DNA of 64,000 nucleotides, taken from assembly GCF_963921235.1 (NCBI RefSeq), contig NC_086108.1, positions 61,816,001-61,880,000 of the forward strand, in the 5' to 3' direction. Each line of letters begins with the position of its first letter. Position 1 is the stretch's first letter. The notes under the pieces are model-generated. The model did no database searches, was not told the origin of the DNA, and saw nothing but the letters and a program-made list of their open reading frames with translations. This document shows positions 22,140-64,000 of the stretch, in pieces. The stretch is from Mobula hypostoma. Lineage: Eukaryota. Made by a program: the position numbers and the translations under genes.

Positions 22140-22189
22140 GACAGCAAAATAAGAAGGGATTGATTTCAGGTCAAATGGGTGAGTTAATC

Positions 22190-24790: not shown

Positions 24791-25689
24791 ATTGTTGAGG
24801 TTCACTGTCATTTCATGGAAGGAGTTAAAGTGGGGTCATGGACCACGTTTTTTGAAGGGGAATGTCATGGAAGGTATTGCTTATTGTTCAGAGAAGTTTT
24901 GGCAGAGCCTGAGAGAACAACTATAGACATGCCAGCAGAACAACTCCAGAAACACGAGTTCCACACAGTCTCCCAGTGAGCCGACTGTGGAGTTTATACT
25001 ATCTCCCTGAGACGGTATAGGCTTCTTCAGGGCTCTGTTTTTCTACCATATTCCTAAGATGTGTTGGTTGATTAATTAACTAGTGTAGGAGGATGCAGAA
25101 GAATCAGTGGGGAGTTGTTGGGCTTCTGAGAGAGAATGGCTTCTTGAGAAAGCCATAGGGGAATGTATTTGAAGGGAATGCTTCAGGAGCTGGTGGAGAC
25201 TATATGCATTGAATAATTTCCTACTATTTCCCAAGTATGAGAAATCTGAAGTTGGAATATCAGTCTATGGCCTACATATTGATCACATGTCAACATTTTC
25301 AATGAACAATGTCTCCACAAGCTTAGCTTTACCAAGCCTGCCGTCACAGAGTTACACAACATTCCTTGCCCACAGTAGACTTTGTGGTCTAAAGATCATT
25401 CAATACAACCACTGCTGATTTTCAAAAATACAGCTGTATTGCAAGGCCTCCAATTTTCCTGAACATCTTACATAGATACTCATGACCATCATGTAGGAGT
25501 CAGTCATTACCGTGCCCAAAGTTGTTAAGACTCCTGGGAACTGGTGGGGAGAGGAGAAATGCAGCAATCCCCAGAAAGGGAAGCACTTTTCCACTTCCCA
25601 ACTCTCATCGGGTGCAGGACAAAGGAATGCTAGTCCTTCATGACCTGGGTTGTACGCCCACAACCACAAATGCTATTACTATTTGGGAC

Positions 25690-25910: not shown

Positions 25911-26204
25911 TGCGGCATGACAAAGCTAGCTACCACATTGCTCACGATAACTGTGCACTCCGCAAGGGGTTCAGTGTTCCTGTTAGGTTCAGTAGTCCCT
26001 TACCGGCACAGACTGATCTTTCCCTGGATAGCATCTCCACATTCTGGATAAGAGAGATAAGTTCATGCAGAGTATCACAATGTTCCTGGAGAACAGCAAA
26101 CAGTGGAAGTCTGCCTTTGTCTATGTGCCCCAAATGCACGCATGCACACAGTTGTGTCTGTGCATCTGTGCATAATGGTGTACAACTACGTCTGTATTTG
26201 TATT

Positions 26205-26480
26205 CAGCAATATACAACAAATGCTGGAGGAACCCAGCAAGTCAGGCAACATCTATGGACAGAAATAAACAGCTGATGTTTTGGGCCAAGGCTCTTCATG
26301 AGGACTGGAAAGAAAGAGGGCAGAAACCAGAATATGAAGGTGGGTGGTGGGGGAGGGAGATGTGAAGGGGAGGAATATAAAACTGTTTATTTCCCTCCAT
26401 AGATTTTGCCTTCCCTGCTGACTTTTCCAGGATTTTGTGTGTGTTGCTCAAGATTTCCAGTGCCTGCAGTCTTTTGTGTC
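26205..26480. mobile_element. Mini PLE insertion with opposed terminal-repeat pieces
   Basis: Minus terminal repeat 26205-26365 followed by plus copy 26380-26480; exact 14-bp TSD TCTGTATTTGTATT at 26191-26204 and 26481-26494. Confidence 0.8.
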
Positions 26481-26559: not shown

Positions 26560-28152
26560 CACTCTCCTCTGTCTGACTGACCTTGTCCTCTCTCAATAAT
26601 TTCTCCTTCAGCTCCTCCCGCTTCCTTCAAACAAAAGGTGTAGCCATGGCCACTCGCATGGGTCCCAGCTATGCCTGTTTGTTTGTCAGCTACGTGTTCC
26701 AAGCCTATACTGTTATCACTCCCCAACTTTTCCTATGCTACAACGATGACTGCATTGGGGCTGCTTCCTGCACTCATGCAGACCTTATCAGTTGAATCAA
26801 CTTTGCCTCCAACTTCCACCTTGCCCTCTAATTTACCTGGTCCATTTCTGACACCTCCCCCACCTTTCTCAATATCTCTGTCTCTGTCTTTGGAGACAGC
26901 TTAGCTACTGATGTCTTTTATAAACTCACTGACTCTCACAGTCACCTGGACTATACCTCTTCCCACACTGCCACGTGTAAAAATGCCATCCCCTTCTCTC
27001 AATTCCTCCATCTCCCCTGCATCTACTCTCAGGATTAGGCTTTTCAGTCCAGAACTAAGGAGGTGTCTTCCTTCCAAGAAAGAGGCTTCCCTTCCTCCAC
27101 CATCAACACTGTCCTCAACCACATCCCTTCCATTTTGCGCACGTCTGCCCTCACCCTATCCTTCCACCACCTCACCAGGCACGGGATTCCTCTTGTCCTC
27201 ACCTACCACCCCACTAGCCTCCGTGTCCAGCACATAATTCTCCTTCACTTCCTCCACCTCTAACAGGATCCCACCCTCACACCCCCAAGCACATCTTTCC
27301 CTCCCCCTCACCTTCGGCTTTCCACAGGGATTGCTCCATACATGACTCCCTGGTCCATTCGTCCCTCCCTCTGATCTTCCTCCTGGCACTTATCCTTACA
27401 AGTGGAACAAGTGCTGCATCTGGCCCTACTCCTCCTCCCTCACTACCATTCAGGACCCCAAACAGTCCTTCCAGGTGAGGTGACACTTCACCTGTGAGTA
27501 TGTTTGGGGGGAGGGGGTCATCTATTCTACCTGGTGCTCCCAGCGTGGCCTCCTGCATATCAGTGAGACCCGACATAGATTGGGAGACTGCTTCGTTCAC
27601 CAGAACAAGCAGGATCTCCCAGTGGCCACCCATTTTAATTCCACTTCACATTCCCATTCCGACATGTCAGTCCATGGCCTCCTCTATTGCCACAATGAGG
27701 CCACACTTGGGTTGGAGGAGCAACACCTTATATTCCGTCTTGGCAGCCTCTAACCTAATGGCATGAACATTGGTTTCTTGAACTTCCGGTAATGGTCACC
27801 CCTCCTTCACCATTCCCCATTCCCATTTCCCTCTCTCACCTTATCTCCTTACCTACCTATCACTTCCCTCTGCTGCTTTCCTCCTTTTCTTTCGTCAGTG
27901 GCCTTCTGTCTTCTCCTATCAGATTTCCCATTCCCCAGCCTTTCTAACAATCACATTGCCAGCTCTCCTTCATTCCTCACCCCCTCCCGGTTTCACCTAT
28001 CTCCTACTACCTTGTATTTCTTCTACCCCTCCCCCTGACCTTGTCTTTTTTCCCTCCAGTCCTGATGAAGGGACTCGGCCCAAAACGTCAGCTGTACTCT
28101 TTTCCATAGATGCTGCCTGGCCTGCCGAGTTCCTCCAGCATTTTGTGTGTGC
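26560..28152 (+). mobile_element. Penelope-like retroelement, 5'-truncated: RT, GIY-YIG and terminal repeat
   Basis: LNNFSF...FLQTKGVAMATRMGPSYACLF...YNDDCIG (PLE RT); GVIY...CSQRGLLHISET (GIY-YIG remnant, ~27512); terminal repeat with hammerhead motif at 28057-28093 carrying a G12A change. Confidence 0.88.
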
Positions 28153-29130
28153 TACATGTATCATTGCGATTTTGTGTCTTACAGCTACAGCTGAAGGCAG
28201 GTTCCTGGAGGAAGTGGGTGTAGTTCCCACTCTCTCTTCCCAATGAGACTTTAGCATTTATGCAGCATTGCTCTTTATTTCCTGATAAATCACTCCCTGT
28301 CATGAGCTCAGTACCACCTCCTGTCAGCCTCCACTGTTCATAGCCCTTGAAAGCCTCTGGGCTCTGTGATACATTCCACTTTCATCCTGTCTTGGATTTC
28401 ATCCACTCAGACTGTCAGAAAAGCAGGAGGCCTGCTCCCTGCTGTCTATGACTCTGCCACAATCATTTCAGCCATTAACTCTGTTACTGCAAAGGTACAT
28501 CAACAAACTGGAACCCTGCATGCTTGCAGAACTGTGAAGTGTATTTCAAGCAGGAAGTCTCGGGTACTTCATTGCTTCCCTCGTATGGAAGTACTGCCAG
28601 AAAAGAGCTTGCTCCTTTACTTAGATTCACAGACAAAAACACATCTGATGCATAGAGTGTCTTAATACTCTTGCACTGCACACCCATGTTTAAAATTTCT
28701 AAAGAGCTAGTAAATGTCCAGGCAAATTTTCTCAAGACACTTCGCAGAATAATTGTCAGACAGACAGTAGCTACCATTTTTAATGTATTAATGAATGGTT
28801 CTTGACCTAAAACACATCTGTTTCATTTTCCTCTGATGTTGTTGGACTTGCTGAGGGTTAGCAGCAACTTCTGGTTTACTTAAAGATTCCATCACTTGCA
28901 GTTTTTAATTTTGATAGTTTTTCAAGTACAGTATTCAAGTGGAGCAACGAGAAAATTTGCATAACCAACACTGCAGAGCACAAAGTCAAATACAATTTGA
29001 TGGCTTTATATTTGGCAAAAAGGTCCTTTCTAGTGGACCTAGTTTAGTTCTAGAGGAGTGGCACTTCAGAATGTTTGAGTAATGTACAACGAATGGCCTT
29101 ACCTCATTGATAATTCTCAACATGAAATCT

Positions 29131-34962: not shown

Positions 34963-35359
34963 TGGCTGGGACATGCTGACAACTAACCAATGGCACTGCA
35001 GAGAATCGCTTGCTGGCTGCAGAGCCCACAATGGTCTGACCTGGACTTCTGTGCTTGCACTACGCAGCACGTGAATACTCGACGTCAGACAAGAAGATGA
35101 ATACAGGGACATCCAACCTCCTATATCGCTTCTGAACTCATCATTTAGTACAAGGGTGTTCTCTAATGAACTAATGAGCTAAGGGACAGATACATTTAGT
35201 ACAAGTTTTGTTTGAAAACCATTAAAAACATAGGTAATATGTAACTTTTTGATTAATGTAAATATTTTAATTTACATCAGTCAAATACATTTGTGAATTA
35301 TTAAGTATTTTATGAATAGTTTTAATATCTTTACTTTTTTCTCTCCAAAGTTTCTTTAT

Positions 35360-35930
35360 AAGACCATAAGATATCGAAAACATAAGACATAAGACATCCA
35401 GCCCATCAAGTCTGCTCCGCCATTCCATCATGGCTGGTTTATTATCCTGCTCAACCCCATTTTCCTGCCTTGTCCCTGTAACACCTGACACCCTTACAAA
35501 TCAAGAGCTTATCAACCTCCGCTTTAAATATATCCAATGAGTTGGTATCTGCAGCTATCTGCACCACAGAACTTCAAAAATTCACCACCCTCTGGTGGAA
35601 GAAATTCTGTTCTAAAGGGACATCCTTCTATTCTGAGGCTGTGCCCTCTAATCCTAGACTCCACTACTATGGGAAGCATCCTCTCCATGTCCATTCTGTC
35701 TAGCCCTTTCAAAATTCAATAGGTTTCAATGAGATCCCTCCTTATTCTTCTTAATTCCAGTAAGTACAGGCTCAAAGCTATCAAACATTCCTCATACGTT
35801 AGCCCTCTCATTCCCAGGATCATTCTCGCAAACCTCCTCTGGACCCTCTCCCATGCCAGCACATCCTTTCTAGATAAGGGGCCTAAAACTGTTCACATTA
35901 CTCTCAGTGCAGTCTGACCAATGCCTTATA
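35360..35930 (-). mobile_element. CR1 LINE 3' fragment
   Basis: KGLDRMDMERML...SRIRGHSLRIEG; tail appears as CATAAGAC repeats on +. Confidence 0.85.
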
Positions 35931-38900
35931 GTCACTGATGGTCAAACAATAGCTTTAAAGGGCTTTGATGGTCTAAGTTGTTCAAAGGCCATCAGGCAGC
36001 TATGGCAGGTCTCGTAGCCTGGTGTATCTAGAGGTAGGGCCAAGGCAGCAATACATAAAGAACCACTTCGCCATATGACGTAAGCACAACTGAGGGCAAG
36101 CACAACGAGGACCACAGGACACAGGTGAGGTCTAGCCCAAGCTGGTCTACTGATCTGAGACACTGCTTACTCAGTGTGCAAAATATATCTCTTAACATTA
36201 CATAAGTAAAAGCAGTGAGTTGTCTTAGCAAACATTCCAAAGAAGAAAAGTGCATTCACAGATCGTTAATATCATTTATGTTTTGAGAGACCCAGTGGTG
36301 CGCAAATTTGCAGTAATGTCAGGCAAAGAAGCGACTTTAATTCCAGGTTACATTAATAGGAAAGGGTTGAAGATGGAACATTCTGAAAAAAAAGTAAAGG
36401 GAATATTAAATGTAAGGGTTGAAAAAGAGGATGAAATGCAAATTTATAAACAGACCTACTGCATCCCAAATGCTTTCTTAACAATCCTTTAAACAGTGAA
36501 AACCTTACAATGTGCAAAGCATCTGATTTGACATAAATAATTATTTAAAATGTCAGCCTTCATCATTTATTTTGAATATACAATTAGAAATTTCCTAAAA
36601 TAAAATGACAATGTACCTTTGTGGCTTGCCTTTAAAGTTATGTTCAAATTACTTAATCTACCTTGAAAACCAAATGAAAAGCCACAGAATACTTCAGACA
36701 GATCATCCTATATTATCTACTTACAAAGTGTGGGAACAGTCCTGGTGAATTTTCTCTATTGATATTATTCCTACATCTGCTGTACCTCATCTGCAACTAG
36801 AATAAGCGTTTCTGTCATTTATGAGTGATTTGTATCAGAATTGGGTCAGTGTATCTAGTTGGAGATATCAGTGGATCTATTTCGATTTGGGATGCCACCT
36901 ACTGTCTGCTTCAGGTAAGTACAACATGCAGTTTAAAAGAGGCTGCAGCTGTACAGCAGGATGACAGTGAAAGGAATTCAAAGCCAAAGTAAATCTAAAA
37001 AACTCATTTTTAGATTTACCCCACCACATTTATCTTTGTCTGCTCCTTTCACAAAGCTGACTTCCTTCAGTATGGCATCTACATAGATAATTTTCTGAAT
37101 GCCTTAGCAGTTAAATCAGACATCAAACCTGATATCCTTTTATCCCATGCATTTGCATCTAATCTCTGGGTAATCCATTTTCTCACTCTATGAATTAAAG
37201 ACACTAATGGTCAGTAACTAATAGAACGACCTTATGGTAAATTCAATGACCAACCCTTCCTGCACTTCAGTTAAGTTCAGTCAGATTTGTTATTAGATTG
37301 AGTACTACTTCACTTTAAGAAATCCAAATTTGCTACTATTTAGGCTGCAATGTCTCGGTATTAATATTGGCCTAATATTAACTTAATTTCACCCAAATTC
37401 CCTTCAGAACTTACAATCCATAAGGTATTAGACACCCAATTGTAATGGTTAGGTAATGTGATATTCCAGGGGTGTCACTATAGCTACCTGGAAGTGAGTT
37501 TTATTAATCCTTGGCTGATATGTTGGGTAGATCATCCTGCTGAGACGGATTTTCTATTTTAGAGGTTGAGATGGAACACTTATCCTGTCAACCAATCACA
37601 GAATTGCAATTATGACAATTGTTCTTCATTCCTTAATCCTGGCTGTTTCACAGCCAGACTGAAGGACTCTGTGTCACAACTACAATATACTGAAGCATAA
37701 AGTGGAAAAATGAAAACCCTTCAAGCTCTTTCAACTTTATAGAATCTTGCAAGAAGCAGAAAACAAAGAAAATTAGTAAATAATTACATATGGATTATAT
37801 AGAATATACCTTGAATAAAATAAACATTATTTTAAATTCTACTTCTGGAATTCAATGGAAAATCCAATTGGATTACCATTTTTTTAAAGAAACTTTTCTG
37901 TCTATGACCTGTCCCTTCAAAGGATAAACACTTTAGTACTGTGGCCAGAATTTGTGATTGATTCTCAAGGATAACCTCTATAATTACAGATAGAAAGCAA
38001 AGAAGAAGAAATTGCAAGTATAGCTTCACAACTTTAGCGTTAGAAAGCTCAATTCAGATTTTGGAGAAAGTCCACACCCAGACCAGTTGAGGTAAAACTG
38101 TGTAAATCATGTTCTCATTGTAAATCATGCAAAATGAATAAAGCTATATCATTTTTTCTGCTCACAGCTAATACATCCTCATGAATATTTTTTTGTATCA
38201 GGGCCAGGCCCTTTGGGTGCTCTCTAAAGGCTGGCAAAAGCTGTCATCACTGTATTGATTTGTAATACAATCTGCTGCATCATGTCATTTTCTTAAATCG
38301 TGCAGTACTGAGACACACCTACCGGCCAATCTACAAGAGCAGCTTTCGTTACATTTGGCACGACTAAGCATCCACATTAAAAACAGCATATAGAAAACAA
38401 TATAATGACCTGTTAGCAACCGAGCTGTAAACTCTGAAAGCTGTAAATCAAGCTTGCAATTTACAGCATTACATCAGGACAATTCCAAAGCACATTCATA
38501 AAATCCCTAATTATATAGCAACAGGGTAAAATTATGAATATGCAGCATGCAGTGCTCTCCACACTAATACCATGCATATCATTTATTTTTTATTACTTTA
38601 TTTCCTATCTGGCTCCTTTGTTTTGCAATTTCTAATATGCAGCAGTAATATATTCACATACAACCAGTGATTTACACACAGCCTGTTTCAGCAGAACCCA
38701 GCATTAAACTTGCCATGGGAAATCTACATTGCAAGCCAGTGACAGCACAATTCTCAAGAATAAAGAACACACAGAATCTTTATGAAATGCATTCACAACC
38801 TCTAAAAGGACTCAAGATGACCTGATATTTTGGCATAACCTGAATGACAGACAGCACTGGAACCATCTCTCTCTCACTCAACAATCGGAGCTCCATCACA

Positions 38901-39862: not shown

Positions 39863-40724
39863 GAATAATGCAGACTCAAGTGTGCCTTTCCTCCCACTCC
39901 CACCCAAATTGAATTCATCCACATCAATCCAGAAAACTAGCAAGACCTGACATACCATTTAACTGACAACCCAGGAGCAATCTCGGTCATGGTTTGAGAC
40001 ACTGCAGCCATCTTTTCCTACCAAAAAAAAAAGGAAATTAGTCATTTTCATATGAGATATGGGAAGAAACCTAGCGAATACAGAAGAGTTTAATCAGGCA
40101 AATTGAAAACGGAAAATGCTGTAAATACTCAGCTGATCAGGCTGCAGCTCTCAGAAGGAATACAGAGGTAACATTTCATGTTCAAGATCCCTCAGTCAGA
40201 ACTTGTACAGAGAAGAAGCTTGGTTAGCTACAGGGAGGGTGGGAGAGGGATATATTTGACAGGGTAAAACCAAGCTGACAAAACACCTTTTCTAGCAAGG
40301 CATCTTCCACCTGAAAAGTTGCCTCTGTTTTTCTTCCTACAGATGTTCTCCGATCTGCTGAGTATTTACAGCATTTTCTGGGCTTTTTTTTACTTTAGAT
40401 TTCACCACAATATTTTTTGGTAATTTCAGTTTATCCAGGCAACCCCGTAATTGACTAGCCATTCCCACAAGAAGACAAGTGAACTTAGATTTTCAAAGGT
40501 ATGAATAGTCGCATCATTAGCATTATTTACTCCTTCAGGAGGTACATACAAAGTCAATCAACCTCGGTACAACGACGGACGTGCAAGACCATAAAGATTC
40601 ACCACATGTCCTCCATCCTAAAGATACAGACAATGGAAGCAACATGCCAGACATATAGTTCATCAAGCAGTAGATCAGGTCAATACTTTGCATGTCTGCC
40701 ATATCTAATTATGAACGGTGAAGG

Positions 40725-40964: not shown

Positions 40965-43900
40965 GCCAAGTGGAGTTGAGCGGTGAAAAGCTAACAGTGT
41001 CTTCACCCAGGCCAGGGAGGGAACTTTAAAAATCAATGCTTTATTGCCAGTTTCTTGGAGCTTGAAAAGTAGCCAATCGGAGCTCAGAGGAGAAAGCAAC
41101 AGCGTCTTTATCCAGGCTGAGGAGAGACCTTTAAACGTCAGCGCTTCCTAACCAGTTTTTCAAAGCTTGAGCAGCAGCTAATTGGAGTGAACAAGGTCAA
41201 GTGAAAATAAGGCACTGGCAAGTGGAGTGGGGCAGTGTTGTTGGGGGGGAGACCTTTGGCTTTGTTTCAAGAGGCTTGGGCGACAACAGGCATGGGCGGC
41301 GTACATAAGTATCTGGTAAGCTTTCTCCTTGCTGGTCCTTCATCTGTAAGTGTATATTTGGGGCAGTAAGAATGACTCCAGGGGCTGGTGTTTTGTTCTT
41401 TTGTGTGAGATGGAATTCTGGGAGACCTCCAGCCTCCCGGGTAAGCACATCTGCTCCAGCTGCACCAAGCTGCAGCTCCTCGGAGAACGTGTTGAAGCTG
41501 CAACTCAATGACCTTCATCTCATAAGGGAAAGTGAAGAGCTAATAGATAGGAGATACAGGGAGGTAGTCACCACTAGATTGCAGGAGGCAGGTGAACAAG
41601 TGACTGGCAGGAGAGGGAAGGGAAATAGTCAGTCAGTACAGAGTACCCCTTTGGCCATTCCTCTCAATAACATGTTGGGTACTGTTTGGGGGGGGATGAC
41701 CTACACTGGGGGATCCGTTTAACCAAGTCTCTGGCACAGAGTCTGGTTCTGTGGCTCAGAAGGGTAGGGGGCAGAGGAGGAATGCTGCGTTGCTAGGAGA
41801 TGTCATAGTCAGAGGAGTAGATAGGAGAGACTGTGGATGCAATAGAGAGACCCAGATGGTTTGTTGCCTCGCAGGCCCTAGGTTCAGGGACATCTTTGAT
41901 CATGTCCACGACATTCTAAAGGAGGAGGATGAGCAGCCAGACCTCCTGGAACATACTGGTACCAATGACATAGGAAGAAAAAGAGAGGAGGTCCTAAAGA
42001 AAGAATTTAGAGAGCTAGGTAGAAAGCTGAAAAGCAAGAATTGGATGATTTGGCAGATGAATAGATAGTTGAGGAACTGGTACAGGAAACAGGCTTTCAG
42101 ATTTATGGATCATTGGGATATCTTCTGGGAAAGGTAGGACCAGCACAAAAGGGACAGCCTACACCTGAACCTAAGGGGGACAAATATCCTTGCGGGCATG
42201 TTTGCTAAAGCTTTTGGGGTGGATTTAAACTAATATCATAGGGAGATGGGATCTGAGATGATAAGGATGTTGGTTTACAAGCAGAGGTAATGTACAGTGA
42301 GCCTGTCAGGAAGGACAAGCAGATGACAGGGAAAAATTGCAGTCAGTGGGATGGGTTACATTATAAAAGGGGGACAAAATTTTAAAAGGTGACAAATGCA
42401 GGACTGGAGATATTATATCTGAATGCATACATTATAGAAAAATAAGGTAGATGTCCTTTGAAGTACATTTAGAGATTGGCAGGTATGACATTGTGTGTAT
42501 CATGGAGTTATGGTTGAAAGAAGATTGTAGTTGAGAGCTTAATATCCAAGAATATACAATCTACCAAAAGGAAGAGCGGGTAGGCAAAGGAGGAGGAGTG
42601 GTTCTGCTGGTTAAAAAAAAAATGAAATCAAATCTTTAGATAGAGGTGACATAGGACCGAAAGATGTAGAATCCTTGTGGGTAGAGTCAAGAAACTGCAA
42701 GTGTAAGAAGACCCGGATGGGAGTTATATACAGGCCTCTGAATAGTAGCCAGGATGTGATCTACAAACTACAACTGGTTTAGAAAAAGCATGTCAAAAAG
42801 ACAATGTTACGTTAGTCACAGGGCAATTTCAATATGCAGGTAAATTGCGAAAATAAAGTTGATGCTGGATCCCGCGAGAGAATTTGTGGAGTGCCTCCGA
42901 GATGGCTTTTTGGAGCAGCCTGTGGTTGAGCCCACTAAGAGATCAGCAATTCTGGAATGGGTGCTGTGTAATAAACCAGACATGATCAGGCGGTTTCAGG
43001 TAATGGAAACAGTGATCATAATATGATAGAATTCACCCTGCAATTTGACAGGGAGAAGCTAAAGTCAGAAGTATCAGTATTACAGAGGAGCTTAGGAGGG
43101 ATAATGGCGCCTAACGACAACTCCTTTGCTTGCACCTTCAGAAACCGCTCTAGTTCCACCTTTAGTATCTTTATATTTTTCCTTTCAGGGTTCTTTTGAA
43201 GACCCTGACCTGGAGTTACATGTAGGCTCCAGTTCTTTGCGGGAATGGGACCCATTCTCGGGGTTCCACGACTGGCCAATGTTCGACATGCCAAGGTTTC
43301 GGCCTGAGAGTCTTATGTTCGGAAGCCTAAGAACTCGGGACTCTGGAGACGGGCAGATCGAGGGTCGGCGTCACAGCAGGAGACTTGTGTGTCGTCGGGG
43401 AGGCCGGAAAATCTTTCACTGTGGGCGTGAAGACCCGAGGTCTTTGTGATCTTCGGACACAGAGCTCGAAAAAAGCAACGAAACGGACTTTTAACATCAT
43501 AAACCGGTGGGTTGTTGTTATGTCTCCCGCTCACTGTGAAAATGGGGGGACACCTCCCTCTCCCTTGCCAGGGAGAGAGAGAACTTTTAGTTTGTTGATT
43601 GTCAGATGAAATGCGAAGCCTTTGGTCTATGTCTTTGTTATTGCTCAGCACTTGTTGGGCGCAGTGACGGTACCGATGCGCCTTTTTTTTGCTGGTGGGA
43701 GGGCAGGGGATTGTTGCTTGCTGCTGCTTATGTGCGGGGGGGGAAATGGGAGGAACTTTGGGGTTCTCACGTTTAACTGTCATTCATTCTTTGGAGCACT
43801 CCTCTGTTTCCTTGGATGTTTGCGAAGAAAAAGCATTTCAGGATGTATATTGTATACATTTCTCTGACATTAAATTTGACCTTTGAACCTTTGAATTTAA

Positions 43901-44344: not shown

Positions 44345-44900
44345 CTTTGCATCAGTCTTCACCTCAAAAGCTTTGGGCCCATATCTCAGAAAAGGTATGT
44401 TGTCATTGGAGAGAGTCTAGAGGAAGCTTGAGGATGATTCCAGAAATGAAAGGGTTAATATACGACGAGCATTTGGCAGCTTTGGGCCTGTATTCACTGC
44501 AGTTTAGAAGAATGCATGGGGATCTCATTGAAACCTACCAAATGCTGAAAGGACTAGATAAAGTGGATGTGGAGAGAACATTTCCTATGGTGGGGTGTCC
44601 AGAACTAGAGGGCACAGCCCCAAACTTGAGGGGCAATCCTTTCAAATACAAGTAAGGAGGAATTATTTTAGCCAGAGAGTGGGGAATCTGTGGAATGCTC
44701 TGCCTGAGACAGCTGTGGAGATCAAGTCCATGGGTATATTTAAAGCTAAAATTGATAGTTTCCTGATTGGTCAGAGCACCAAAGGTTATGATGAGAAGGC
44801 AGGTGTACGAGGTTGAGTGGGAACTGGGATCAGCCATAATAGAGTGATGGAGAAGATTGATGGGCTGAATGGCCTAATTCTGCTATGTCTTATGGTCTAA
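44345..44900 (+). mobile_element. CR1 LINE 3' end
   Basis: LGLYSLQFRRMHGDLIETYQMLKGLDKVD; GTCTTATGGTCT tail. Confidence 0.85.
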
Positions 44901-44994
44901 GACAGAGGTCCCCAACCTTTTTTGCACCGCGGACCAGTTTAATATTGACAATATTCTTGCGGACCGGCCGACCGGTGGGGGGGAGGTGTTCAAG

Positions 44995-45655
44995 TAGGGT
45001 TAAACTCACCTCAACATGTCTTTTACAGCTAGGGTTGCCAACTTTCTCACTCCCAAATAAGGGACAAAAGTAGCAGTCAAATCCTGACGAAGGGTCCCGG
45101 CCCGAAACGTCGACTGTACCTCTTCCTATAGATGCTGCCTGGCCTGCTGCGTTCACTAGCATTTTTTGTATGTGCTGACAGGACACTTGTGTTTACCCCA
45201 AGAAAGACTTCCATGACCATGAAGCCTTGCGCCGGCACCTGTGTGAGCATGCGTGACTTGCGCATGCGCGTACGTGCTGATTTTTTTCCCCACATAACGG
45301 TTTTGGCTTAATCTTCCCAACTACACTGTACATACATTATTTCTACTTTATATAGGCTGTGTATTTATCATATCATTCCTGCTTTTACTGTATGTTAGTT
45401 TTATTTTAGGTTTTATGTGTTATTTGGTATGATTTGGTAGGTTATTTTTTTGGGTCTGGGAACGCTCAAAAATTTTTCCCATATAAATTAATGGTAATTG
45501 CTTCTTCACTTTACACCATTTCAGCATGAAAGGTTTCATAGGCACGAACTACCTTAGCAGGGGAAATACGGGACAAGGGCGGTCCCGTATGGGACAAATT
45601 AATTTGGCCCAATATACGGGATGTTCCAGCAAATACGGGACAGTTGGCAACCCTA
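44995..45655. mobile_element. Nested hAT (Blackjack-like) MITE
   Basis: Perfect TIR TAGGGTTGCCAAC (45030-45042) and GTTGGCAACCCTA (45643-45655); subterminal (C)GGGAC repeats; outer TAGGGTT at 44995 with TSD TGTTCAAG/TCTTCAAG. Confidence 0.75.
45074..45116 (+). ncRNA. Minimal type I hammerhead ribozyme motif, best-preserved copy
   Basis: CTGACGA (45084-90), A, stem II GGGTCCCGGCCC, GAAAC, GTC (45109-11), GACTG; all core nucleotides intact; lies in a ~92-bp PLE tail fragment 45083-45174. Confidence 0.72.
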
Positions 45656-45750
45656 TCTTCAAGTTCAATAGTGCGTGACAAGGAATGAGGAAAGGTGCAG
45701 CTGACTCATATCATTTTCTCGCAGCCTGGTAGCACATGCTTTGTGGCCGC

Positions 45751-46071
45751 GGACCAATACCGGGCCGCGAAGCATGCAGTGGTGCAGTGGTAGCCGGGAC
45801 GCACCCAACACATCTTTAAGAAAAAAGCCAAAATAAACAAGCTAATTAGTTAGGTGCCACCCGGCATGTAAATGTCAGCCCAGATCAGAAGCAATTGCTG
45901 ATTTCACTTGCTCTACGAAATCAGCAATCGCCTCTGATCTATGCCAACATTTACGTGCCGGGCGGCACCTAATTAATTAGCTTGCTTATTTCGGCTTTTT
46001 TCTTAAATATGTGCTGGGTACGTCCTGCCTAACACTGCACCCCTGCATGCTTCGCGGCCCGGTATTGGTCC
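45751..46071. repeat. Long inverted repeat (foldback) inside the hAT element
   Basis: Arms 45751-45905 and 45917-46071 are near reverse complements around an 11-nt spacer ACTTGCTCTAC. Confidence 0.92.
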
Positions 46072-46585
46072 ATGGCCCGGAGGTTTGGGACTACTGGTCT
46101 AAGGCACTATTAGTAAGCTGGAAGTTCAAGAGTCAAGGGGCAGAAGTGAGTGCGGTTGCTATTACTTGGGAGATGGTACTTTAGAAAATGAAAGATCTGA
46201 AGGTAGATGAGCCACCAGGATCTGAAGGACTACACCCCAGGATTTTAAAAGAGATAGCTGAAGAGATTGTGCAGGCATTACTATAGTAATGATCTTTCAA
46301 AAATCAGTAGATTCTGGCATGGTTCCAGAGGGCTGGAAAATTGCAAATGTCACTCCACTCTTTAAGAAGGGAGGAAGGCAAAAGAAAGGAAATTATAGGC
46401 CAGTTAACCTGACCTCAGTGGTTGGGAAGATGTTGGAGTCAATTGTTAAGGATTGGTTTCAGGGTGCTTGGAGACACGTGACAAAATGGGCCAAAGTCAA
46501 TATGGTTTCCTTAAGGGAAAATCTTACCTGATAAATCTATTGAAATTCTTTGAAGAAATAACGAGCAGAGTAGACAAAGGAGAAT

Positions 46586-47210: not shown

Positions 47211-47654
47211 ATATTGGTGGTGGAATTGGAGGATGTTATGTACTTTTCAGAAGGCACTTGACAAGGTGCCATACATGAGGCTGCTAAACAAGATAAGTAA
47301 CCAAGGTATTACAGGAAAGATACTAGCATGGACAGAGGACTGGCTGATTGACAAGGTGAAAAGAGTGGGAATAAAGGGATCCTTTTCAGATTGACTGGCA
47401 GTGACAAGTGCTGTTCCACAGGGATCTTTGTTGGGATTACTTCTTTTAACGTTGTATGTCAATGATTGGGATGATGAAATTGATGACTTTGCAGTCAAAT
47501 TTGCAGACGATATGAAGATAGATGGAAGAGCAGGTAGTGTTGAGTAAGCACAGATGCTGCAGGTTAGGAAGAATGGCCACAGAGGCTGCAGATGGAATAC
47601 AACGTTGGGAAGTGTGTGGTCAGGGACTTTGGTAGAAGGAATAAAAGCATACAC

Positions 47655-49078
47655 CATCCCTTCCCACTAATCTGCCTCCAGGCCTTATCCCTGCAAACAG
47701 CCTAAGAGCTACACCTGCTGATACACTTCCTCCCTCACCTCCATTCAGGGCCTGAAACAGTCCCTCCAGATGAGGCAATACTTCACCTGCGAATCTGCTG
47801 GGGTCATCTATTGCATCCGTTAACTCTCAACATGGCCTCCTCTATGTTGGTGAGACCCATCGTAAATTGGGGAACCGCTTCATCGAGCACCTCCGCACCA
47901 TCCGCCACAAGCAGGACTTCCCTGTGGTCAAATATTTTAATTCCGATTCCCACTCCCACATGATGGAGGAGCAACACCTTATATTCCTTCTGGGTAGCCT
48001 CCAACCTGATGGCATGAATATCAATTTCTCCATCCAGTGAACATATTCCACCCCCACCCCACGCCTCTCTATTCTCCACTTCAACCTTTCACTTTTTCTC
48101 ACCTGCTTATTTCTTCCCCTGGGTTCTCTCCTCCTTCCCTTTCTCCTATTGTCTGCTCTCCTCTCCTATCAGATCCTTTCTTCGCAAACAAGAGGAATTC
48201 TGCAGATGCTGGAAATTCAAGCAACACACATCAAAGTTGCTGGTGAACGTCCGGTGCTCCCAATGTGGCCTTTTATATATTGGCGAGAGCCGACACAGAC
48301 TGGGAGACCATTTTGCTGAACACCTATGCTCTGTCCACCAGAGAAAGCAGGATCTCCCAGTCGCCACACATTTTAATTCCACATCCCATTCCCATTCTGA
48401 CATGTCTATCCATGACCTCCTCTACTGTAAAGGTGAAGCCACACTCAAGTTGGAGGAACAACACCTTATATTCCATTTGGGTCGCCTCCAACCTGATGGC
48501 ATGAACATTGACTTCTCTAACTTCCGCTAATGCCCCACCTCCCGCTCGTACCCCATTCGTTAATTATTTTTATACACACATTCTTTCTCTCACTCTCCTT
48601 TTTCTCCCTGTCCCTCTGACTATACCCCTTGCCCATCCTTTGGGTTCCCCCCTGACTTTTCCTTCTCCCTGGGCCTCCTGTCCCATGATCCTCTCATATC
48701 CCCTTTGCCAATCACCTGTCCAGCTCTTGGCTCCAGCCCTCCCCCTCCTATCATTTTGGATCTTCCCCTCCCCCTCTCAAATCTCTTACTAACTCTTCTT
48801 TTAGTTATTCCTGAAGAAGGGTCTCGGCCTGAAACATTGACTGTACCTCTTCCTAGAGATGCTGCCTGGCCTGCTGCGTTCACCAGATCCTTTCTTCACC
48901 AGCTGTTGACCTTTCCCACCCTCCTGGCTTCACCTATCACCTTCCAGCTAGCATCTTTCCCTTTCCCCCCGCCTCTCAGTCTTGATGAAGGACCTCAGCC
49001 CAAAACATTGACTGTTTATTCTTTTCCATAGATGCTGCCTGACCTGCTGAGTTCATCCAGCATTTTGTGTGTGTTGCA
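47655..49078 (+). mobile_element. Penelope-like 3' fragment hosting a nested PLE
   Basis: GVIYCI...LYVGET GIY-YIG remnant (~47800-47860); 3' part continues after the nested insert at 48898-49078. Confidence 0.8.
48184..48883 (+). mobile_element. Younger Penelope-like insertion with inverted 5' terminal repeat
   Basis: Inverted terminal piece 48184-48249; ORF RCSQCGLLYIGESRHRLGDHFAEH...LEEQHLIFHLGRLQPDGMN; hammerhead motif 48811-48843; 14-bp TSD CAGATCCTTTCTTC at 48170-48183 and 48884-48897. Confidence 0.88.
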
Positions 49079-51384
49079 TAGACTATTTTCCAAATATGGA
49101 GAAAATTCAAAATTCTGAAGTGCAAAGGGATTTGGGTTTTCTCGTACAGGATTCTGTAAAGGTTGAATTGGTGGTGAGGACGGAAAGTCCTCACCATTTT
49201 CCATATAACTCATCACATTGTACCGGGTCAAAACTCTTAAACTCCCTGTTGATCAGCATTGTGGTACTAAACTAGGAGGTGATGGCTCCCCTTAACAAGG
49301 GCAAAAGCAATGAATAATGACCTTTGCAGCAATGGCCACAACCTGTAAACGAATATAGTAGTACATGCTGTTCTCAAAAATAGAAAGAATTCAATGGGTC
49401 AAACTCACACCCAATCAGAGTATTCCCCGTCAGCAGCAATTTAGTAATACAGCATTGTTAATATTGCTATAGAGCAGCTCCTGCTCATTAATTAGCCAGC
49501 AATTATAAATCTAACTGGGACATTTGGAATCAGACCTTAATATATTCTTAATCCAAACATTGACAAAGCTAGCTGAGGTGAGATTAACCGTCCTTAACAT
49601 TAAGGCAGCTTTTAATCAAGCGTGGAGCTCTGGTGAAAATGAAGGAGGAGGAAAAAGAAAGGGAAATCTCTCTATTGGCCAGTCACACCCAGCAACTGAA
49701 AATTAATAGCGATTTTAATTGCCATTTATCAGAATCAGAATCAGGTTTAATATCATCGTCGTAGAATATGTTATGAAGTTTGTTGTTTTGTTGCAGCAGT
49801 ACATTACAATACAAGATAATATGCACTTCATTTGTATCACTCAGAAAATGGAGTGTTTGCATTCTTCTTGGTAGGGCAGTTATAATCTGTTATGAATGGA
49901 CCTCACTTCATCAAATTACCAAAGCTGATGAAATATTATTGACCTGAAATGTTTTGCCCTCCCATAGATGTTACCTGACCTGCTGAATATTTCCAACATG
50001 TTATGCTTTATTTCATTTCTCCACAATCTGCAGTATTTTGCTTTTGATTGATTGTCCCCATTACATTTATCATGCTACTGCATATTTTTCCTTCCCACAG
50101 TTTATATCACCACTTTGAAAAGCATTTCTTAGCATCTGCATCATACAGTCTTGACTGTACTTCTCTGCTTCAAGTATCTTTTGCAACCTTCTGGAAGTCA
50201 GCTGCTGCGGGAACCGCTGCCCCCTATTGCCACTTCCTTCCCATATCAGCTGACTGGGTAATGTGCAGATTTGGCTCGCAGGTCATATTCCCCTATAGAC
50301 TCACTGTCCAACCTGATGGTATTGAGCCTCCTGCAACACCACCAAGCCCTGCTCCATGCTGCAATCAGTTTCTCCCTCAGAATTAAAGCTGGGGCGAATA
50401 ATGTAATCCTGCATGCATATCTAGGTTTGAGGAGAGGTCTGCGTCTGAGGCCCACACAGCAGCCATAAAGCTTATTTGCTCATAAACTGGCACAAGGGCC
50501 TTTGTTTTGCTTACTCCACCATTGAAGAAAGATCAGCTATTCTGTGGATCAGGTTGAGCAATGGCTGAGAGAGGATAGATGTGTAATTAATGAGGGGGAA
50601 TTGGTCATAAAGTGGAGGAGAGGGGAGGGGGAAGGAAGGGGGAAAGGGGGGAGAGGAGGATAGATTTGCAACAGAGGGAGTGCAATGAAAGTTGACAGGA
50701 TTTGGTTTATCACAGAAAGAGAGACTACGGCTGAATTTTCTTGTAATTCAAAGAATGAGAGGTGATCTTATAACATGCAAAATTCTTAAAGAGCTTAACA
50801 TCTAGATGTGGAGCTGATATTTCCCATGGCAGTTTCTATAACCAGGGTCAATCTCAAAATAAAGGGTCAACTACTTTAGGACATAGATGTGGAGGAATTT
50901 TTTTCACACATGGAAAGTAAGTCATTGGAATTCTCAACCCAAAAAGTGTCATGGAGACTGAGTCACTGAGCATATGGAAGACAGGTAGATGGATTTGGTA
51001 TTAAAGAAACCAAGGGACATTGGGATGATGCAGGAAAGTGGCACTGAGAAAAAGGATAAGTCATGATATTACTGAATGTCAGAAGTATGGGGTGAAATAG
51101 TGTTCACCGCAGATTCCCCAGCCCCTGGCCTGCTCTTGTAGACATAATATTTATATAGCTGCCTCGGGTGACTTTCTCATTAACAGTATTGGTGGGGGAC
51201 CTCATGGTGGTAATATGATTGAAAGTCAAAATGTAAGTGATTACATTGTTGGGATGACATTCACTTGTCGACCTGTGGTGCACACACTGCTTGACAAATA
51301 ACAGCAAGTGCCTGATTGTTGTATAGCTTTGTTCCCATACAGGGACTGCCTGTTCCAACTGATCCGTTGCAAATGGAATTAAAC

Positions 51385-54989: not shown

Positions 54990-56605
54990 TCTGCTGTTTA
55001 TGAAGATATGAGCAGTGTGCCAGATGTTGAGGGGTGTGAGGAAAGAGTGAGCGCAGTTTCTATTACAAGGGAGAAGGTGCTCAAAAAGCTGAAAGACCAG
55101 AGGGTACATAAGTCACTCAGACTAGAAGAACTGCACCCTAGGGTTCTGAAAGAGGTAGCAATAGAGACTGCAAATGTCACTCTGCTCTTTAAGAAAGGAG
55201 GGAAGCAGCAGAAAGGAAATTATAGACAAGTTATCTTGACCTCAGTGGTTGGGAAGATGTTGAAGTCAACTGTTAAGAATGAGTTATGGAGTACTTGGTG
55301 ACACAGGACAAGATAGGACAAAGTCAGCATGGTTTGCTTTAGGGAACAGGTTGCCTGACGAAGTTGTTGAAATTCTTAGAGGAGATTACAAGTAGGGTGG
55401 ATAAAGGGGACATAGTGGATGTTGTATATTTAGAGTTTACGAAGGCCTTTCACAAGGTGCCACACATGACACTGCTTACCAAGTTAAGAGCCCATGGTAT
55501 TACAAGAAAGGTACTGACATGATTAGAGCATTGGCTGATTGGCAGGAGGCAGTGAGTGGGAATAAAAAGATCCTTTTCTGGTTGGCTGCCAGTGAATGAC
55601 TAGTGGGTTCCACAGGGTTGGAGTTGGGCACCGCTTCTTTTTGTGCTATATATCAATGATTTAGGTGATGAAGTAGATAGATTTGTTTCTAAGTTTGCAG
55701 ATGATACAAAGATTGGTGGGGGGCAGGTAGTGTTGGGAAAGAGGAAGGCTACAGAAGGACTTAGACAGATTAGGATAATGGACAAGAAAGTTGCAAATGA
55801 AATACAATATTGGAACATGATGGTCATGCACTTTGGTAGTAGAAATAAATGTGTGGACTATTTTCTAAATGGGGAGAAAATACAGAACTTTGAGATGCAA
55901 AGGGATTTGGGAATCCTTGTGTAGGACACCCTAAAGGTTGGTTTGCAGATTGAGTCAGTGGTGAGGAAGACAAATGTAATGTTAGCATTCATTTCAAGAG
56001 GTCTAGAATACAAGAGCAGGGATGTGATGCTGAGGATTTATAAGACACTGGTGAGGACTCACCTTGAATACTGTGAACAATTTTGGACCCCTCATCTAAG
56101 AAAGGACATGCTGGCATTGGAGAGGGTTCAGGGGAGGTTCACAAGGATGAGTCGTAGAATGAAAGTGTTATCATACAAGGAACGTACTCATTGGAATTCA
56201 GAAGGATGAGGGGGAGATTTCATTGAAACCTTTTGAATGTTGAAAGTCCTGGACAGAGTAGATGTGGAAAGTATGTTTCCCCTGGTGGGGGAGTCTAGGA
56301 CAAGAGATCATAGCCACTGGATAGAAGGATGGCCATCTAATACAGAGATGCGAAGAAATCTCTTTAACCAGAAGGTGGTGAATTTGTGGAATTTGTTACC
56401 ACATGCGGCTGTAGAGGCCAGGTTCTTGGGTGTATTTAAGGCAGCAATTGAAAGGTTCTTGATTGGACTTGGCATCAAAGGTTACAGAGAGAATGCTGGG
56501 GAGTGGGGCTGAGGAGAGGAGAAAAGGATCAGTAATGATTGAATGGCAGAACAGACTGAATGGGCCAAATGGCCTAATTCTGTTCATTTGTCTTATAGTC
56601 TTATG
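54990..56605 (+). mobile_element. 5'-truncated CR1 LINE (RT and 3' end)
   Basis: LYINDL...SKFADDTK, YKTLVRTHLEYC, TRDHS; GTCTTATAGTCTTAT tail. Confidence 0.9.
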
Positions 56606-56729
56606 TCGAGACTTTGGAGAGTGTGCAGAATAGGGTGCTAGCTGGATAAGAGGGCATGTCGTACACCAAACAGAAGGACAAACCTGAGTTGTTTTCTTTG
56701 AGTAGCAGGGTCTGAGGGAAGCCTTCAAT

Positions 56730-59046
56730 TGGAGTACTGAGCAGACGTAACAGAGGCATTCCCGCACAGGTCCAGTGAAAAACCCAGTCTCTATAAAAGA
56801 GAGGTACCACCTAGTGGAGCAGTCAGCATGGGAGCAGTTGTCTCCACAGTAATCTGAGTCAGAGTGGTAAGGCTTTGGCTCAACAAGACTTCAGCAAGAA
56901 TAGGCAGAGGCAATGTAAGTAGGCAAGTTCATGCCTTATTTCTTACTTTTTTTTAGAATTAACTCCAGAGAGAATAGGGGGTATGTCTGCAGAGCCAGCG
57001 TTCTTTTCTGGGTGTCAGATGTGGAATTTCTGGGAGATTCCCAGCCTCCCCGATGGGTGCATCGGAATGCAGCTCGTTAGAGACTGAGTTAGGGGACTGG
57101 AGCTGCAGCTTAATGACCCTCTGCTTGTTAGGGAAATTGAAGAGGTAATATTCAGGAGCTACAGGGAGGTAGTCACCCCAAGGCTACAGAAGACAGATAA
57201 ATGGGTGACTGCCAGGAGAGGGAAGTGGGAACATCAGATAGTGGAGAGCACCCTGTGGCCGTCCCCCTCAAAAATAGGTACTCCTTTTTGAGGACTGTTG
57301 GTGGGGGCAACCTACCTGGGGGAAGCAACAGTGGCCGTGTCTCTTGCACTGAATCTGGCCCTGTGGCTCAGAAGGGTAGGAAACTGAAGAAGATGACAGC
57401 AGTAATAGGGGAATCTACAGCTGGGGGGACAGATAGACAATTCTGTGGATGCGAAAAGGAAACATGGATGGTAGTTTGCCTCCCTGGTGTCGGGGTCCGC
57501 TATGTTTCTAAACGCGTCCACAATATCCCGAAAAGGGTGAGTGAGCAGCCAGAAGTGTGGTACATATTGGTACTAACAACACAGGTAGAAAAAAGGAGGT
57601 CCTGAAAACAGAATACAAGGGGTTAGGAAGGAAGCTGAAAAGCAGGACCTCAAAGATAGTAATCTTGGTATTGCTGACCTTGCCATGTGACAGTGAGGAT
57701 AGGAATAGAATAAGGTGGTGGATAAATGCGTGGCTGAAGAACTGGAGTTGAGGGCAAGGTTCTGGATCATTGGCACCTCTTCTGAAAGGGACAGGTTACA
57801 CTTGAATCTGAGGGTGACCAATATCCTTGTGGGCAGTTTACTAGAGCTTTTGGGGGTGGTTTAAACTAATAGGGCAGGGGGATGGGAACCAGTATATTAA
57901 AGCTGAGGATGAGCCAGCAGGTTTACAAGTAGATGATGTAATACGTAATTTGAATGTAAGGAAGGACAAGCCAATGATAGGGTACAACTGCAGACAGAGA
58001 AAAGAATTAAGTTGAACAACAGAGGTAAAATTCAAAAAGGCGAAGAATGCAGGACTGAAGGTGCTGTATTTAAATGCACGTAGCATTCGGAATAAGGTGG
58101 ATGAACTTGTGGCGTAATAAAAGATTGGTTGGTATGACATTGTGGGCATCACTGAGTCGTGGCTGAAAGAAGGTCATAGTTGGGAGCTTAACAAACGATA
58201 GACTTTGTATCGAAAGGACAGGCAGGAAGGCATAGGTGGTAAGTGGCTCTATTGGTAAGAGATGGAATTACATCTTTAGAAAGAGGTGACATAGGGTCAG
58301 ATAATGTCGAATCTCTGTGGGTGGAGTTAAGAAATTGCAAGGGTGAAAAAACTATAATGGGAATCATATTTAGGCCTCCAAATAGTAGCCACGATGTGGT
58401 GTTGAGCTTGCAAAGGGAGCGGGAAAGGGCATATAATAAGGGCAATGTCATAATTGTAATGGGGGACTTCAATATGCAAGGGGATTGGGAAAATCAGGTT
58501 GGTGTCGGATTGTAAGAGAGGGAATTGGTTGAAGGCCTACGAGATGGCTTTTTAGAGCAGCTTATAGCCTACTTGGGAAAAGGCTATCTTAGATTGGCTG
58601 TGGTGTAATCACCCAGATTTTATTGGTCAGCATAACATAAAGGAACCTTTAGGAGGCAGTGATCATAATATGATTGAACTTATACTGCAATTTGAGGGGG
58701 AGAAGCACAAGTCACGTGTATCAGTATCACAATGGAATACACAATGGAACTACAGAGCACAGCCTCAAAACTGAGGGGCAACCTTCTAGAACAGAAGTAA
58801 GAATGAATTATTTTTTTTGCCAAAGAGTGGTGAATCTGTGGAATTCTCTACCACAGACTGCAGTGGAGGCCAAGTCCATGGGTATACTCACAGTGGAAGT
58901 TGATAGATTCCTGATTGGTCGGGGCATCAAGAGATATGGTGAGAGGTATGGGATTGACTAGGATCTGGGATCAGCCATGATGAAATGGTGGACAGGACTC
59001 AATGGGCTGAATGGCCTAATTCAACTCCTATGTCTTATGGTCTTAT
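56730..59046 (+). mobile_element. CR1 LINE with ORF1 esterase and APE joined directly to the 3' end (RT deleted)
   Basis: VIGEST and VHIGTNN esterase blocks; LYLNARSI and IIVMGDFN APE motifs; abrupt jump at ~58745 to the 3' end; TCTTATGGTCTTAT tail. Confidence 0.85.
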
Positions 59047-61584: not shown

Positions 61585-61681
61585 TCTGAAGAAGGCTCTA
61601 GGCCTGAAACATCGATTGTTTATTCATTTCCATTGATGTTGCCTGTCTTGCTGAGTTCCTCCAGCACTTTGTGCATGTTGC
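61585..61681 (+). mobile_element. Solo PLE terminal-repeat insertion starting at the hammerhead core
   Basis: CTGAAGA (61586-92), AGGCTCTAGGCCT, GAAAC, ATC; exact 14-bp TSD TTTTAACAAGGAGT at 61571-61584 and 61682-61695. Confidence 0.8.
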
Positions 61682-63164
61682 TTTTAACAAGGAGTGTCAT
61701 TTTTAAACAATGGACAGCCATGTTCTGGAATGGCAGATAATGATAAGGCTCATGAATGCAGTCCTGGAGGGTGAGTTTGCAGAAGGAAGAACATCTTGCT
61801 CCTCTTCCTCAAGGAACTGTCTAAAGGATCCCATGAAGGAAAATGCTGAAGTCCAGACCAACACACAAAAATGCTGGAAGAATTCAACAGGTCAGGTAGC
61901 ATCTATGCCTAAGACAGCTGACATTTGTCTTATTGTTACATTGCTGGATCTATTCAGATGTTCACAACCTTCTGCAGTTGCTACAAGACCTTCATGTTGC
62001 TTTAAGTAACAACAAGGCAAAACATTAATTATCTCATGGAACTTTCCAGAGGTTTTCAATAAAACGGGTAAAAATATCTCTGAATATTTTTGGAAGTGAC
62101 TCTCTCTTTCTCTCAAACTGTGGCATACATAAGATCAGCGAGTACTGCAAGCAAAAGCAGTAACGTTATCGGAAATAACCTTGTTGCTTACTTACATTTT
62201 TCTGCATATTTATTATGCTTCACTGTGCTTCCAGAAGGTGCTTGAAACGTCTGAACAGAGGCCTACCCAAATATTGAACCAGCCACGTGCTCTCAGTCCT
62301 GCATTTGTATGTCTCTCCTGAGTTCACACAAACAATAAATCTTCTTGGGCTTTTCCTCCAGAAATCCCCCTGAAGAATGATCAATTCATGGCATAACTCA
62401 TGGGTGTGTCACAGTGCATGCTCTACCTAAAACTGTTCCCGATTCCACGGTAGGAAAGGATCCTGATTTGCACAATTAAGAAGCCAAACACCCTTTAAGT
62501 AGCAGGCACTCTTGTCAATTAAATGTTGTCTAAAATAATACATCATCTTGTCTATTTGAGATGCAGTTCAGCTGTTGCAGTTTCAATCTGATTTACATAG
62601 CAGCAGGTAACTTCAGTTCCATTTCTTTCCTGGAGAAGACAGATATAAAGCCTTCAGTTTTTATTTCTCTCGGAGATTCATGAATTTTTTAAAGTCCTTT
62701 TCTCAAAGGGCAGTGGAAAAAGAGTTTCTGAATATTTTCTAAGGCAGAGCTACATGGAGAGTTGATAAGTGGGGGGACATGGATGGAGAAAGATGCAGAA
62801 GAATGGTTACAAGCAGATGGCCACAATCTTATTAAGTGATGGAGCAGACCTGGGGCCTTAATTGGAGTATTCACACTTCCATTTAGTACGGCTGTATGTT
62901 TGGATACAAGTTCCTGAATTCTGGGGATTAGAATGTTGAAGTCGGCAGTCTCTCCTTGTAATTTATTAGTCCAGGTATTACGATGATAAATATGCACCAT
63001 ATTCTCCAGACAACAATTTATCCTTTCTGCAGTGTAATTTCCAGAACTGCTCAGAGTACTCTAGGAATGGTGTAGTTAGCACATTGCACTGATTTTTTAC
63101 TCTTTCTACCCATTTCTGGTACAGTCCTTCAAGTACAATGAACAACTTTCCATTCACCCTTTCG

Positions 63165-63410
63165 ATTTCTTTCTCCACTCTTCCATGATCTTCCAAATCC
63201 ATAGCATTCTGCACCTCCTCCCTCTCCAGCATTAGTGATTCCCAATGCAGATAGGGGAATTGCATCATCTAGTACCTTTGTTCCATCCACTGCCAGTGGC
63301 CACCTAATTCCACTTCCCATTCCCACACTGACATGTCTGTCCACAGTCTCTACTATTGCCATGTTGAGGCTAGAGACAGGTTGCAGGAGGAACATCTCAT
63401 ATTCCGCCTT
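63165..63410 (+). mobile_element. Penelope-like fragment, interrupted by CR1; tail resumes at ~63920-63980
   Basis: MSVHSLYYCHVEARDRLQEEHLIFRL; CAGTCCCGATGAAG terminal-repeat remnant at ~63966. Confidence 0.65.
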
Positions 63411-63411
63411 A

Positions 63412-63915
63412 AAACCATAAGACATTGGAGCAGAATTAGGCAATTCTGCCTATCTAGGCTGCTCTACCATTTGATCGTGCCTGATTTACTTTCCGCCTCA
63501 ATTCCATTCCCCTGCCTTTTCACCTGTAACCTTCGATACCCATACTGATCAAGAACCTATCTAACTCCACTTTAAAATATACTCATTGACTTGGTCTCCA
63601 CAGCCATCTGTGGCAATGAGTGACACAGATTCAACACATACTCGCTAAAGAAATTCACACTCATCACTGTTGTAAAGAGGTCCATTCTATTCTGAGGCTG
63701 TGTCCTCTGGTCCTAATGGAAACATCCTCCCCATGTACACTCTATTTAGGTCTTCCAGTAATTGTTATGTTTCAATGAGAACCCTGTTCATTCTTCTAAA
63801 CTCCTCATGCATTAATCCTTTCATTCCCTGGATCGTTCTCATAAACTTCCGCTGGATCCTCTCCAATTCCAACACATCCTGACATGGATATGAGGCCTAA
63901 AACTGCTCATAATAC
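63412..63915 (-). mobile_element. CR1 3' fragment
   Basis: Nucleotide homology to 35360-35930; CCATAAGACAT tail on +. Confidence 0.8.
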
Positions 63916-64000
63916 TCTGCTCCTCCCCCTTTCTTTCTTATTTAGGCTTCAGCCCTCTTCCTTTCCAGTCCCGATGAAGCCCAATGAATATCTCTGCCCA

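Follow-up and report, generated by a model that had tools for sequence, protein, structure and literature searches.

Minimal hammerhead ribozymes (min-HHRs) of Penelope-like elements are a described class, and the closest systems come from four sources. Solo min-HHRs number in the thousands per genome according to Cervera and De la Pena 2014 (PMC4209133); as monomers they show no detectable cleavage, and dimers cleave at a low level. For the Anolis Poseidon element (PAc), Frangieh et al. 2024 (PMC11167929) describe a hammerhead whose cleavage in vitro was shown only with protein; its cleavage is dispensable for insertion in vitro, and unprocessed RNA is the main template. According to Craig et al. 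2021 (PMC8557442), a CX2-5CxxC linker marks both the Neptune and the Nematis clades and does not separate them. A preprint on non-LTR retrozymes (10.64898/2026.07.22.740005) records cleavage in one of nine tested Xenopus dimers.

Here we analyse a hammerhead motif in a 64-kb stretch of DNA from the ray Mobula hypostoma (the window). We propose that it belongs to the 95-bp 3' end of an abundant, likely Neptune-type Penelope-like element lying in a MITE, and that it has kept its core but is likely inert here, having lost most of stem I. We give this reading, which leans in part on folding models, a probability of roughly 0.8.

The focal motif and its MITE host

The motif lies at 45084-45116 (+), exactly as the initial annotation had written it, and is preceded by CAGTC (45074-45078) and then AAATC. 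C3 to A9 occupy 45084-90 and an extra A follows at 45091. Stem II, 4 bp with a tetraloop, spans 45092-45103, GAAA 45104-07, an ACGU palindrome 45107-10 and the GUC triplet 45109-11; the 3' strand of stem I is at 45112-16, which places the predicted scissile bond at 45111/45112. The focal copy therefore has the CUGANGA, GAAA and NUH core, the extra nucleotide and G10.1-C11.1 pair of min-HHRs (A45091; G45092-C45103) and, in the ACGU of 45107-45110, palindromic positions 15.2/16.2 for a dimer helix III. Folding predictions give its stem II pairs probabilities of 0.63-1.0.

Two pattern searches place this resemblance against background. The family consensus, with up to 3 mismatches, matches six sites in the window and none in 100 dinucleotide-preserving shuffles. 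Under a strict min-HHR descriptor, which asks for the core, 15.2/16.2 pairing, UH and no fewer than 3 bp in stem II, 45084 is the sole match among the eight family copies, and 50 two-letter-block shuffles give none. The focal copy is the one in the window with core and palindrome both intact. Its assignment by the initial annotation to the known class of minimal type I hammerheads from Penelope-like terminal repeats stands, the features matching those in PMC4209133. None of the five matches of an Rfam covariance search of the window at E<=1 is a hammerhead family. A relaxed dedicated descriptor was needed to find the min-HHRs of PMC4209133. Chance resemblance could draw on this Rfam result and on the absence of covariation among the eight copies, yet the shuffles yield no matches, and the pLTR location, extra A, G-C pair and palindrome all agree with the published class. 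We regard the probability of chance as negligible.

The motif is part of a 5'-truncated 3'-end (pLTR) fragment of a Penelope-like element, 95 bp long (45083-45177, +), delimited by blastn to the other copies and by contig joints; no target duplication is seen around it. This fragment sits inside a MITE-like element at 45030-45655 with perfect 14-bp terminal inverted repeats and without target duplication, which we take to be hAT Blackjack-like, and that element is in turn nested in an outer MITE at 44903-46096 with imperfect terminal inverted repeats (13/16). The outer MITE is of hAT type because, besides these repeats, it has an 8-bp target duplication (44895-44902 and 46097-46104, 7/8 identical). 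It adjoins the 3' end of a LINE-like fragment at 44898. It also contains a 161-bp inverted repeat (45745-46077; 88% complementary, 11-nt spacer) that could fold as a long hairpin if transcribed, and on which Rfam matches to mir-548, mir-1992 and MIR2871 fall, far below their gathering scores.

Contigs of three public runs (X1, X5 and X12), aligned to 44960-45330, resolve the boundaries of the insert. In 8, 12 and 5 contigs of the respective runs, 45082 is joined to 45181 across three letters of other sequence, so the MITE without insert (the empty site) is seen in public contigs, and a joint from 45082 to 45178 marks the 95-bp insert. The loose-end consensus before 45187 reads through CAGTC, which makes CAGTC (45074-78) MITE sequence; together with the empty-site joints it assigns 45074-45082 (+) to the host. 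At 45109 the majority letter in these contigs is G, with G>A at about 10% of depth. The lack of G8 and G12 changes among the differences listed is no sign of conservation, since alignment ends are clipped there. Summed contig depth, which is not copy number, is two to three orders higher over the fragment than over the MITE flank.

A few of the contigs run across an insertion junction, at 7-14 differences per ~100 bases, and the insertion in the MITE may not be unique. It is conceivable that a MITE subfamily captured the fragment once and spread it by DNA transposition, which would make the focal site one of several filled copies. Two records speak for this, each with at least 31 letters on either side of the one junction that it crosses: the 5' junction in X12 record 13 (45021-45126, 7 differences) and the 3' junction in X5 record 20 (45133-45230, 8 differences, 3 gaps). 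However, the empty form is present in many contigs of the three runs, none among the pieces listed spans the whole stretch, and the bridging records may represent the ortholog of this locus in a related species, or near-threshold alignments. We consider such a capture unlikely, and under it the ribozyme status of the focal motif would be the same.

The parent element and its copies in the window

A homology search with 26 candidate frames yielded 9 hits; among them, the frame 48252-48527 shares 89% of its residues with an uncharacterised Mobula hypostoma protein and 78-82% with two Hypanus sabinus proteins. With two homologous proteins as queries, tblastn finds remnants at 26646-27789, 47629-48031, 48252-48527, 24300-24440, 17133-17648, 63306-63422 and 18515-18646 (-). 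Translation reveals RT-like motifs at 26640-26770, and tblastn continuity extends to 27789; RT is thus followed by a C-terminal GIY-YIG, the Pfam part of this being below cut-off. Pfam GIY-YIG matches occur in 4 of 10 sequences (E 0.0005-0.007, below the curated cut-off), the other six being without a match, and 48252-48527 itself has none. Atlas neighbours carry HTH_animal and GIY-YIG (score 0.95-0.96); P0003 has no PDB match. A CX4CxxC linker is present in all four homologous proteins checked (P0001, P0002, P0003, P0007) and in the window remnant 47629-47820. In three copies the hammerhead core lies ~260, 270 and 281 bp after nuclease remnants on the same strand, which is the terminal-repeat location, and the focal copy is homologous to that post-endonuclease region by blastn. 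Inverted truncated copies with tail-like extensions are found at 22063-22141, 26381-26470 and 48182-48249. On the basis of the RT, linker and nuclease remnants, the hammerhead position and the inverted tailed copies, we assign the family to the Penelope-like elements, and the sequence suggests that it is probably of Neptune type, Neptune being preferred to Nematis because the host is a vertebrate. None of the ORF remnants in the window is intact.

Eight copies with an alignable core occur in the window, besides shorter relics. The longest parent-element remnant (26646-28157, +; tblastn with P0001, E 2e-127) comprises broken RT motifs, thumb, linker and GIY-YIG (to 27789), followed by a pyrimidine-rich 3' region with a decayed hammerhead carrying G12A (28057-28098, +). 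A cluster at 47629-49079 (+) holds endonuclease remnants (47629-48031 and 48252-48527), an inverted tail piece (48182-48249) and two decayed hammerheads (48811 and 48982). At 24300-24793 (+), a C-terminal endonuclease remnant and 3' region include a decayed hammerhead at 24700. The minus-strand copy with core start at 22056 (-) has an intact core and a broken palindrome and is 5'-truncated at stem I; it adjoins an inverted pLTR end with a tail (22063-22141), the whole spanning 21963-22141 by blastn and tblastn. An inverted pLTR pair at 26204-26470 combines a minus copy (core start 26302; G5C, G12A) with a plus-strand pLTR end from ~26381 that has a tail-like extension; an Rfam mir-2 match, far below its gathering score, falls on this pair. 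Finally, a short pLTR-end insertion that begins at the hammerhead core, with stem II broken (61585-61681, +), is flanked by a 14-bp direct repeat.

The copies named in the initial annotation are all present, the one at 48977 by blastn, and its list lacked an eighth at 26204-26307 (-). Its consensus triplet GTC holds as the probable state before CpG decay; the plain majority of the eight copies reads ATC. Its description of scattered self-cleaving motifs was overstated, since the other seven copies carry G12A, C3U, G5C, or a broken palindrome or stem. None of these seven combines an intact core, palindrome and stems, and the window therefore offers the focal copy no intact cis (dimer) partner.

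Departures from the majority amount to 5/88 cells in the core, 16/192 downstream and 14/104 in the stems of the eight-copy alignment. CpG survives in 11 of 32 such cells and has become TG in 8 and CA in 11, a symmetric decay, and G12A occurs in three of the eight copies. This pattern, in a small sample, fits neutral, methylation-driven decay after insertion. Across these eight decayed copies 82% of cells pair and none of nine pairs has a two-sided, compensatory change; we read the structure of the family from its resemblance to the published class. The focal copy retains all four of its scored CpGs, which a young insertion would explain most simply, though constraint could account for it as well.

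At least two subfamilies can be distinguished by the sequence immediately 3' of stem I and by the letters that precede the core: one comprises 45084 (focal), 22056 (-) and 48811, the other 28062, 48982, 24700, 61586 and 26302 (-). In three copies (45082, 22058 (-) and 61585) the 5' truncation falls no more than 1-2 nt from where the CUGA core begins, which could reflect reverse transcriptase stalling or mere selection of copies by core. Among about seven partial copies inspected, the pLTR-end fragment 26381-26470 (+) starts ~1 nt from the predicted cleavage site (G1.1), a hint that cleaved RNA is sometimes reverse-transcribed that may be chance. Older, heavily decayed relics of this or a related terminal repeat, some of them with hammerhead-like remains, lie at ~18070-18146 (+), ~40113-40200 (-), ~40300-40380 (+), ~49940-50005 (+), ~61861-61926 (-) and ~63935-63979 (+).

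Elsewhere in the window, no host gene was identified among 25 candidate frames searched against Pfam; the lone match, RGM_N at 2724-2891 (+), is below cut-off (E 0.0005) and probably due to chance. A homology search with 36825-36989 gave no match. A GC-rich stretch at ~5100-7300 (53-56%) contains frames that, we presume, resemble the integrase region of LTR retrotransposons. Mutually similar LINE-like fragments, presumably CR1/L2-type, occur at 35341-35930, 41493-43084, 44372-44898, 56039-59046 and 63401-63918. Family patterns had no matches in metagenome contigs and viral contigs.

Stem I and the predicted fate of the focal RNA

Members of the family appear able to form a complete stem I. The copy at 48982 has 5 bp, within the ~3-5 bp expected to abut the core, and the loose-end consensus of the three runs places YAGTC directly before the core (agreement 0.37-0.44), which with GACUG would give a 5-bp stem I. 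The focal copy retains only 2 in-register bp, because 5' truncation of the fragment removed the native 5' strand, and it is therefore a truncated relic, not a complete ribozyme. These two pairs form with probabilities of only 0.001-0.014 over five context lengths. In the best fold, by nearest-neighbour prediction, G5-A6-C7-G8 pairs with C15.2-C17 and buries the core, a fold that is likely open to native family copies too. Nearest-neighbour energies leave out tertiary contacts, Mg2+ and help from protein.

The initial annotation had suggested that the focal copy could use the CAGTC of the host for stem I. The CAGTC might do so alone or as 2 bp, a 5-nt bulge and 3 bp, to give a chimeric ribozyme that acts as a dimer or together with another RNA. 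The focal core is intact, copies 28057 and 48977 have exactly CAGTC as the native 5' strand of stem I, and the CAGUC-GACUG pairing reaches probabilities of 0.17-0.92 depending on which of five context lengths is folded. Neither register nor folding supports this rescue, however. The CAGTC is MITE-derived and lies 5 nt out of register, with five extra bases before C3, whereas stem I of the published motif abuts C3, and the fold it enters sequesters the core. The bulged in-register fold reaches -3.8 kcal/mol, against -12.7 kcal/mol for the core-burying fold, and the 81-nt region is no more stable than its shuffles (z -0.15). A double-hammerhead homodimer reaches -7.3 kcal/mol, against -34.6 kcal/mol for the best dimer fold, and an intact cis partner is missing from the window. 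We consider rescue by the host highly unlikely. Highly unlikely, too, is the proposition that the locus either holds a working chimeric hammerhead made from two unrelated transposons through the host CAGTC or presents an intact GUC site that full-length element RNA cuts in trans; were trans cleavage true, the many dispersed copies would be conditional cleavage sites in host transcripts. Also very improbable is a reading of the focal sequence as a non-LTR retrozyme, from a non-autonomous, hammerhead-bearing tandem repeat, in place of the truncated end of a retroelement. Such units are pLTR-related and present in one chondrichthyan genome according to the preprint (10.64898/2026.07.22.740005), but no copy in the window shows a tandem array, let alone one whose units include two or more complete hammerheads, and in three copies the hammerhead sequence follows an endonuclease ORF.

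We therefore return to a truncated, likely inert relic of a Penelope-like element. Its motif, position, truncation, nesting and decay are read directly from the DNA, and the dimer-cleavage mechanism that we propose for the parent is drawn by analogy from PMC4209133 and PMC11167929. Each pseudo-LTR of the parent would carry one hammerhead motif; in a tandem transcript, the ACGU palindromes of two such motifs would bring them together as a double hammerhead. Cleavage after GUC, probably slow and protein-assisted, would free RNA of unit length. The focal copy spans the cut site, so its RNA template was uncleaved at GUC. Reverse transcription would have ended immediately 5' of the core, with the 2 in-register stem I pairs retained, and the monomer RNA of the focal copy is predicted to fold as a rod that buries the core. 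All eight core-bearing copies span the cut site, as selection by core forces them to; this agrees with unprocessed RNA as the main template for PAc (PMC11167929).

Comparison with described hammerhead-bearing elements

We found no description of this ray hammerhead family in the literature searched; most subscription papers and Repbase/Dfam lay outside the search, and the supplements of the preprint may name the family. No cartilaginous fish appears in the portion examined of the supplementary alignment of PMC4209133. The locus adds a ray-type family to the 2014 class and shows a truncated copy landing in a MITE, and otherwise matters little. The role of pLTR hammerheads is the question of the field, cleavage being dispensable for PAc insertion in vitro (PMC11167929). 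So abundant a family could address that role through genome-wide 5'-truncation profiles and RNA-end mapping; the focal copy, being without its native stem I, is a poor test object.

Each known system shares some features with the family and differs in others. PAc resembles it in its pLTR hammerhead, tailed insertions and uncleaved RNA template (PMC11167929), but PAc belongs to the Penelope/Poseidon clade, whereas the family here has the CX4CxxC linker of the Neptune/Nematis type; cleavage by PAc has been shown in vitro, only with protein, whereas for the ray family it is a prediction. The Neptune clade (PMC8557442) shares with it RT, a Zn-finger-like linker, a C-terminal GIY-YIG and a pLTR hammerhead, as well as inverted truncated copies and a tail; here every ORF remnant is broken. 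Non-LTR retrozymes (10.64898/2026.07.22.740005) have in common with the focal copy short pLTR-related units, type I hammerheads and monomer copies, and differ from the family in their tandem units. In motif the likeness is to the min-HHRs of PMC4209133, which, like the focal copy, are of type I with CUGANGA plus one nucleotide, G10.1-C11.1, GAAA, a palindromic 15.2/16.2 without loop 3 and a short stem I, and which, like the family here, are mostly solo copies of truncated elements. The family differs from them in sequence and in its 4-bp stem II with a tetraloop, and the focal copy in having lost the 5' strand of stem I and in sitting within a MITE. Known since 2014, the class gains a further member in this ray family.
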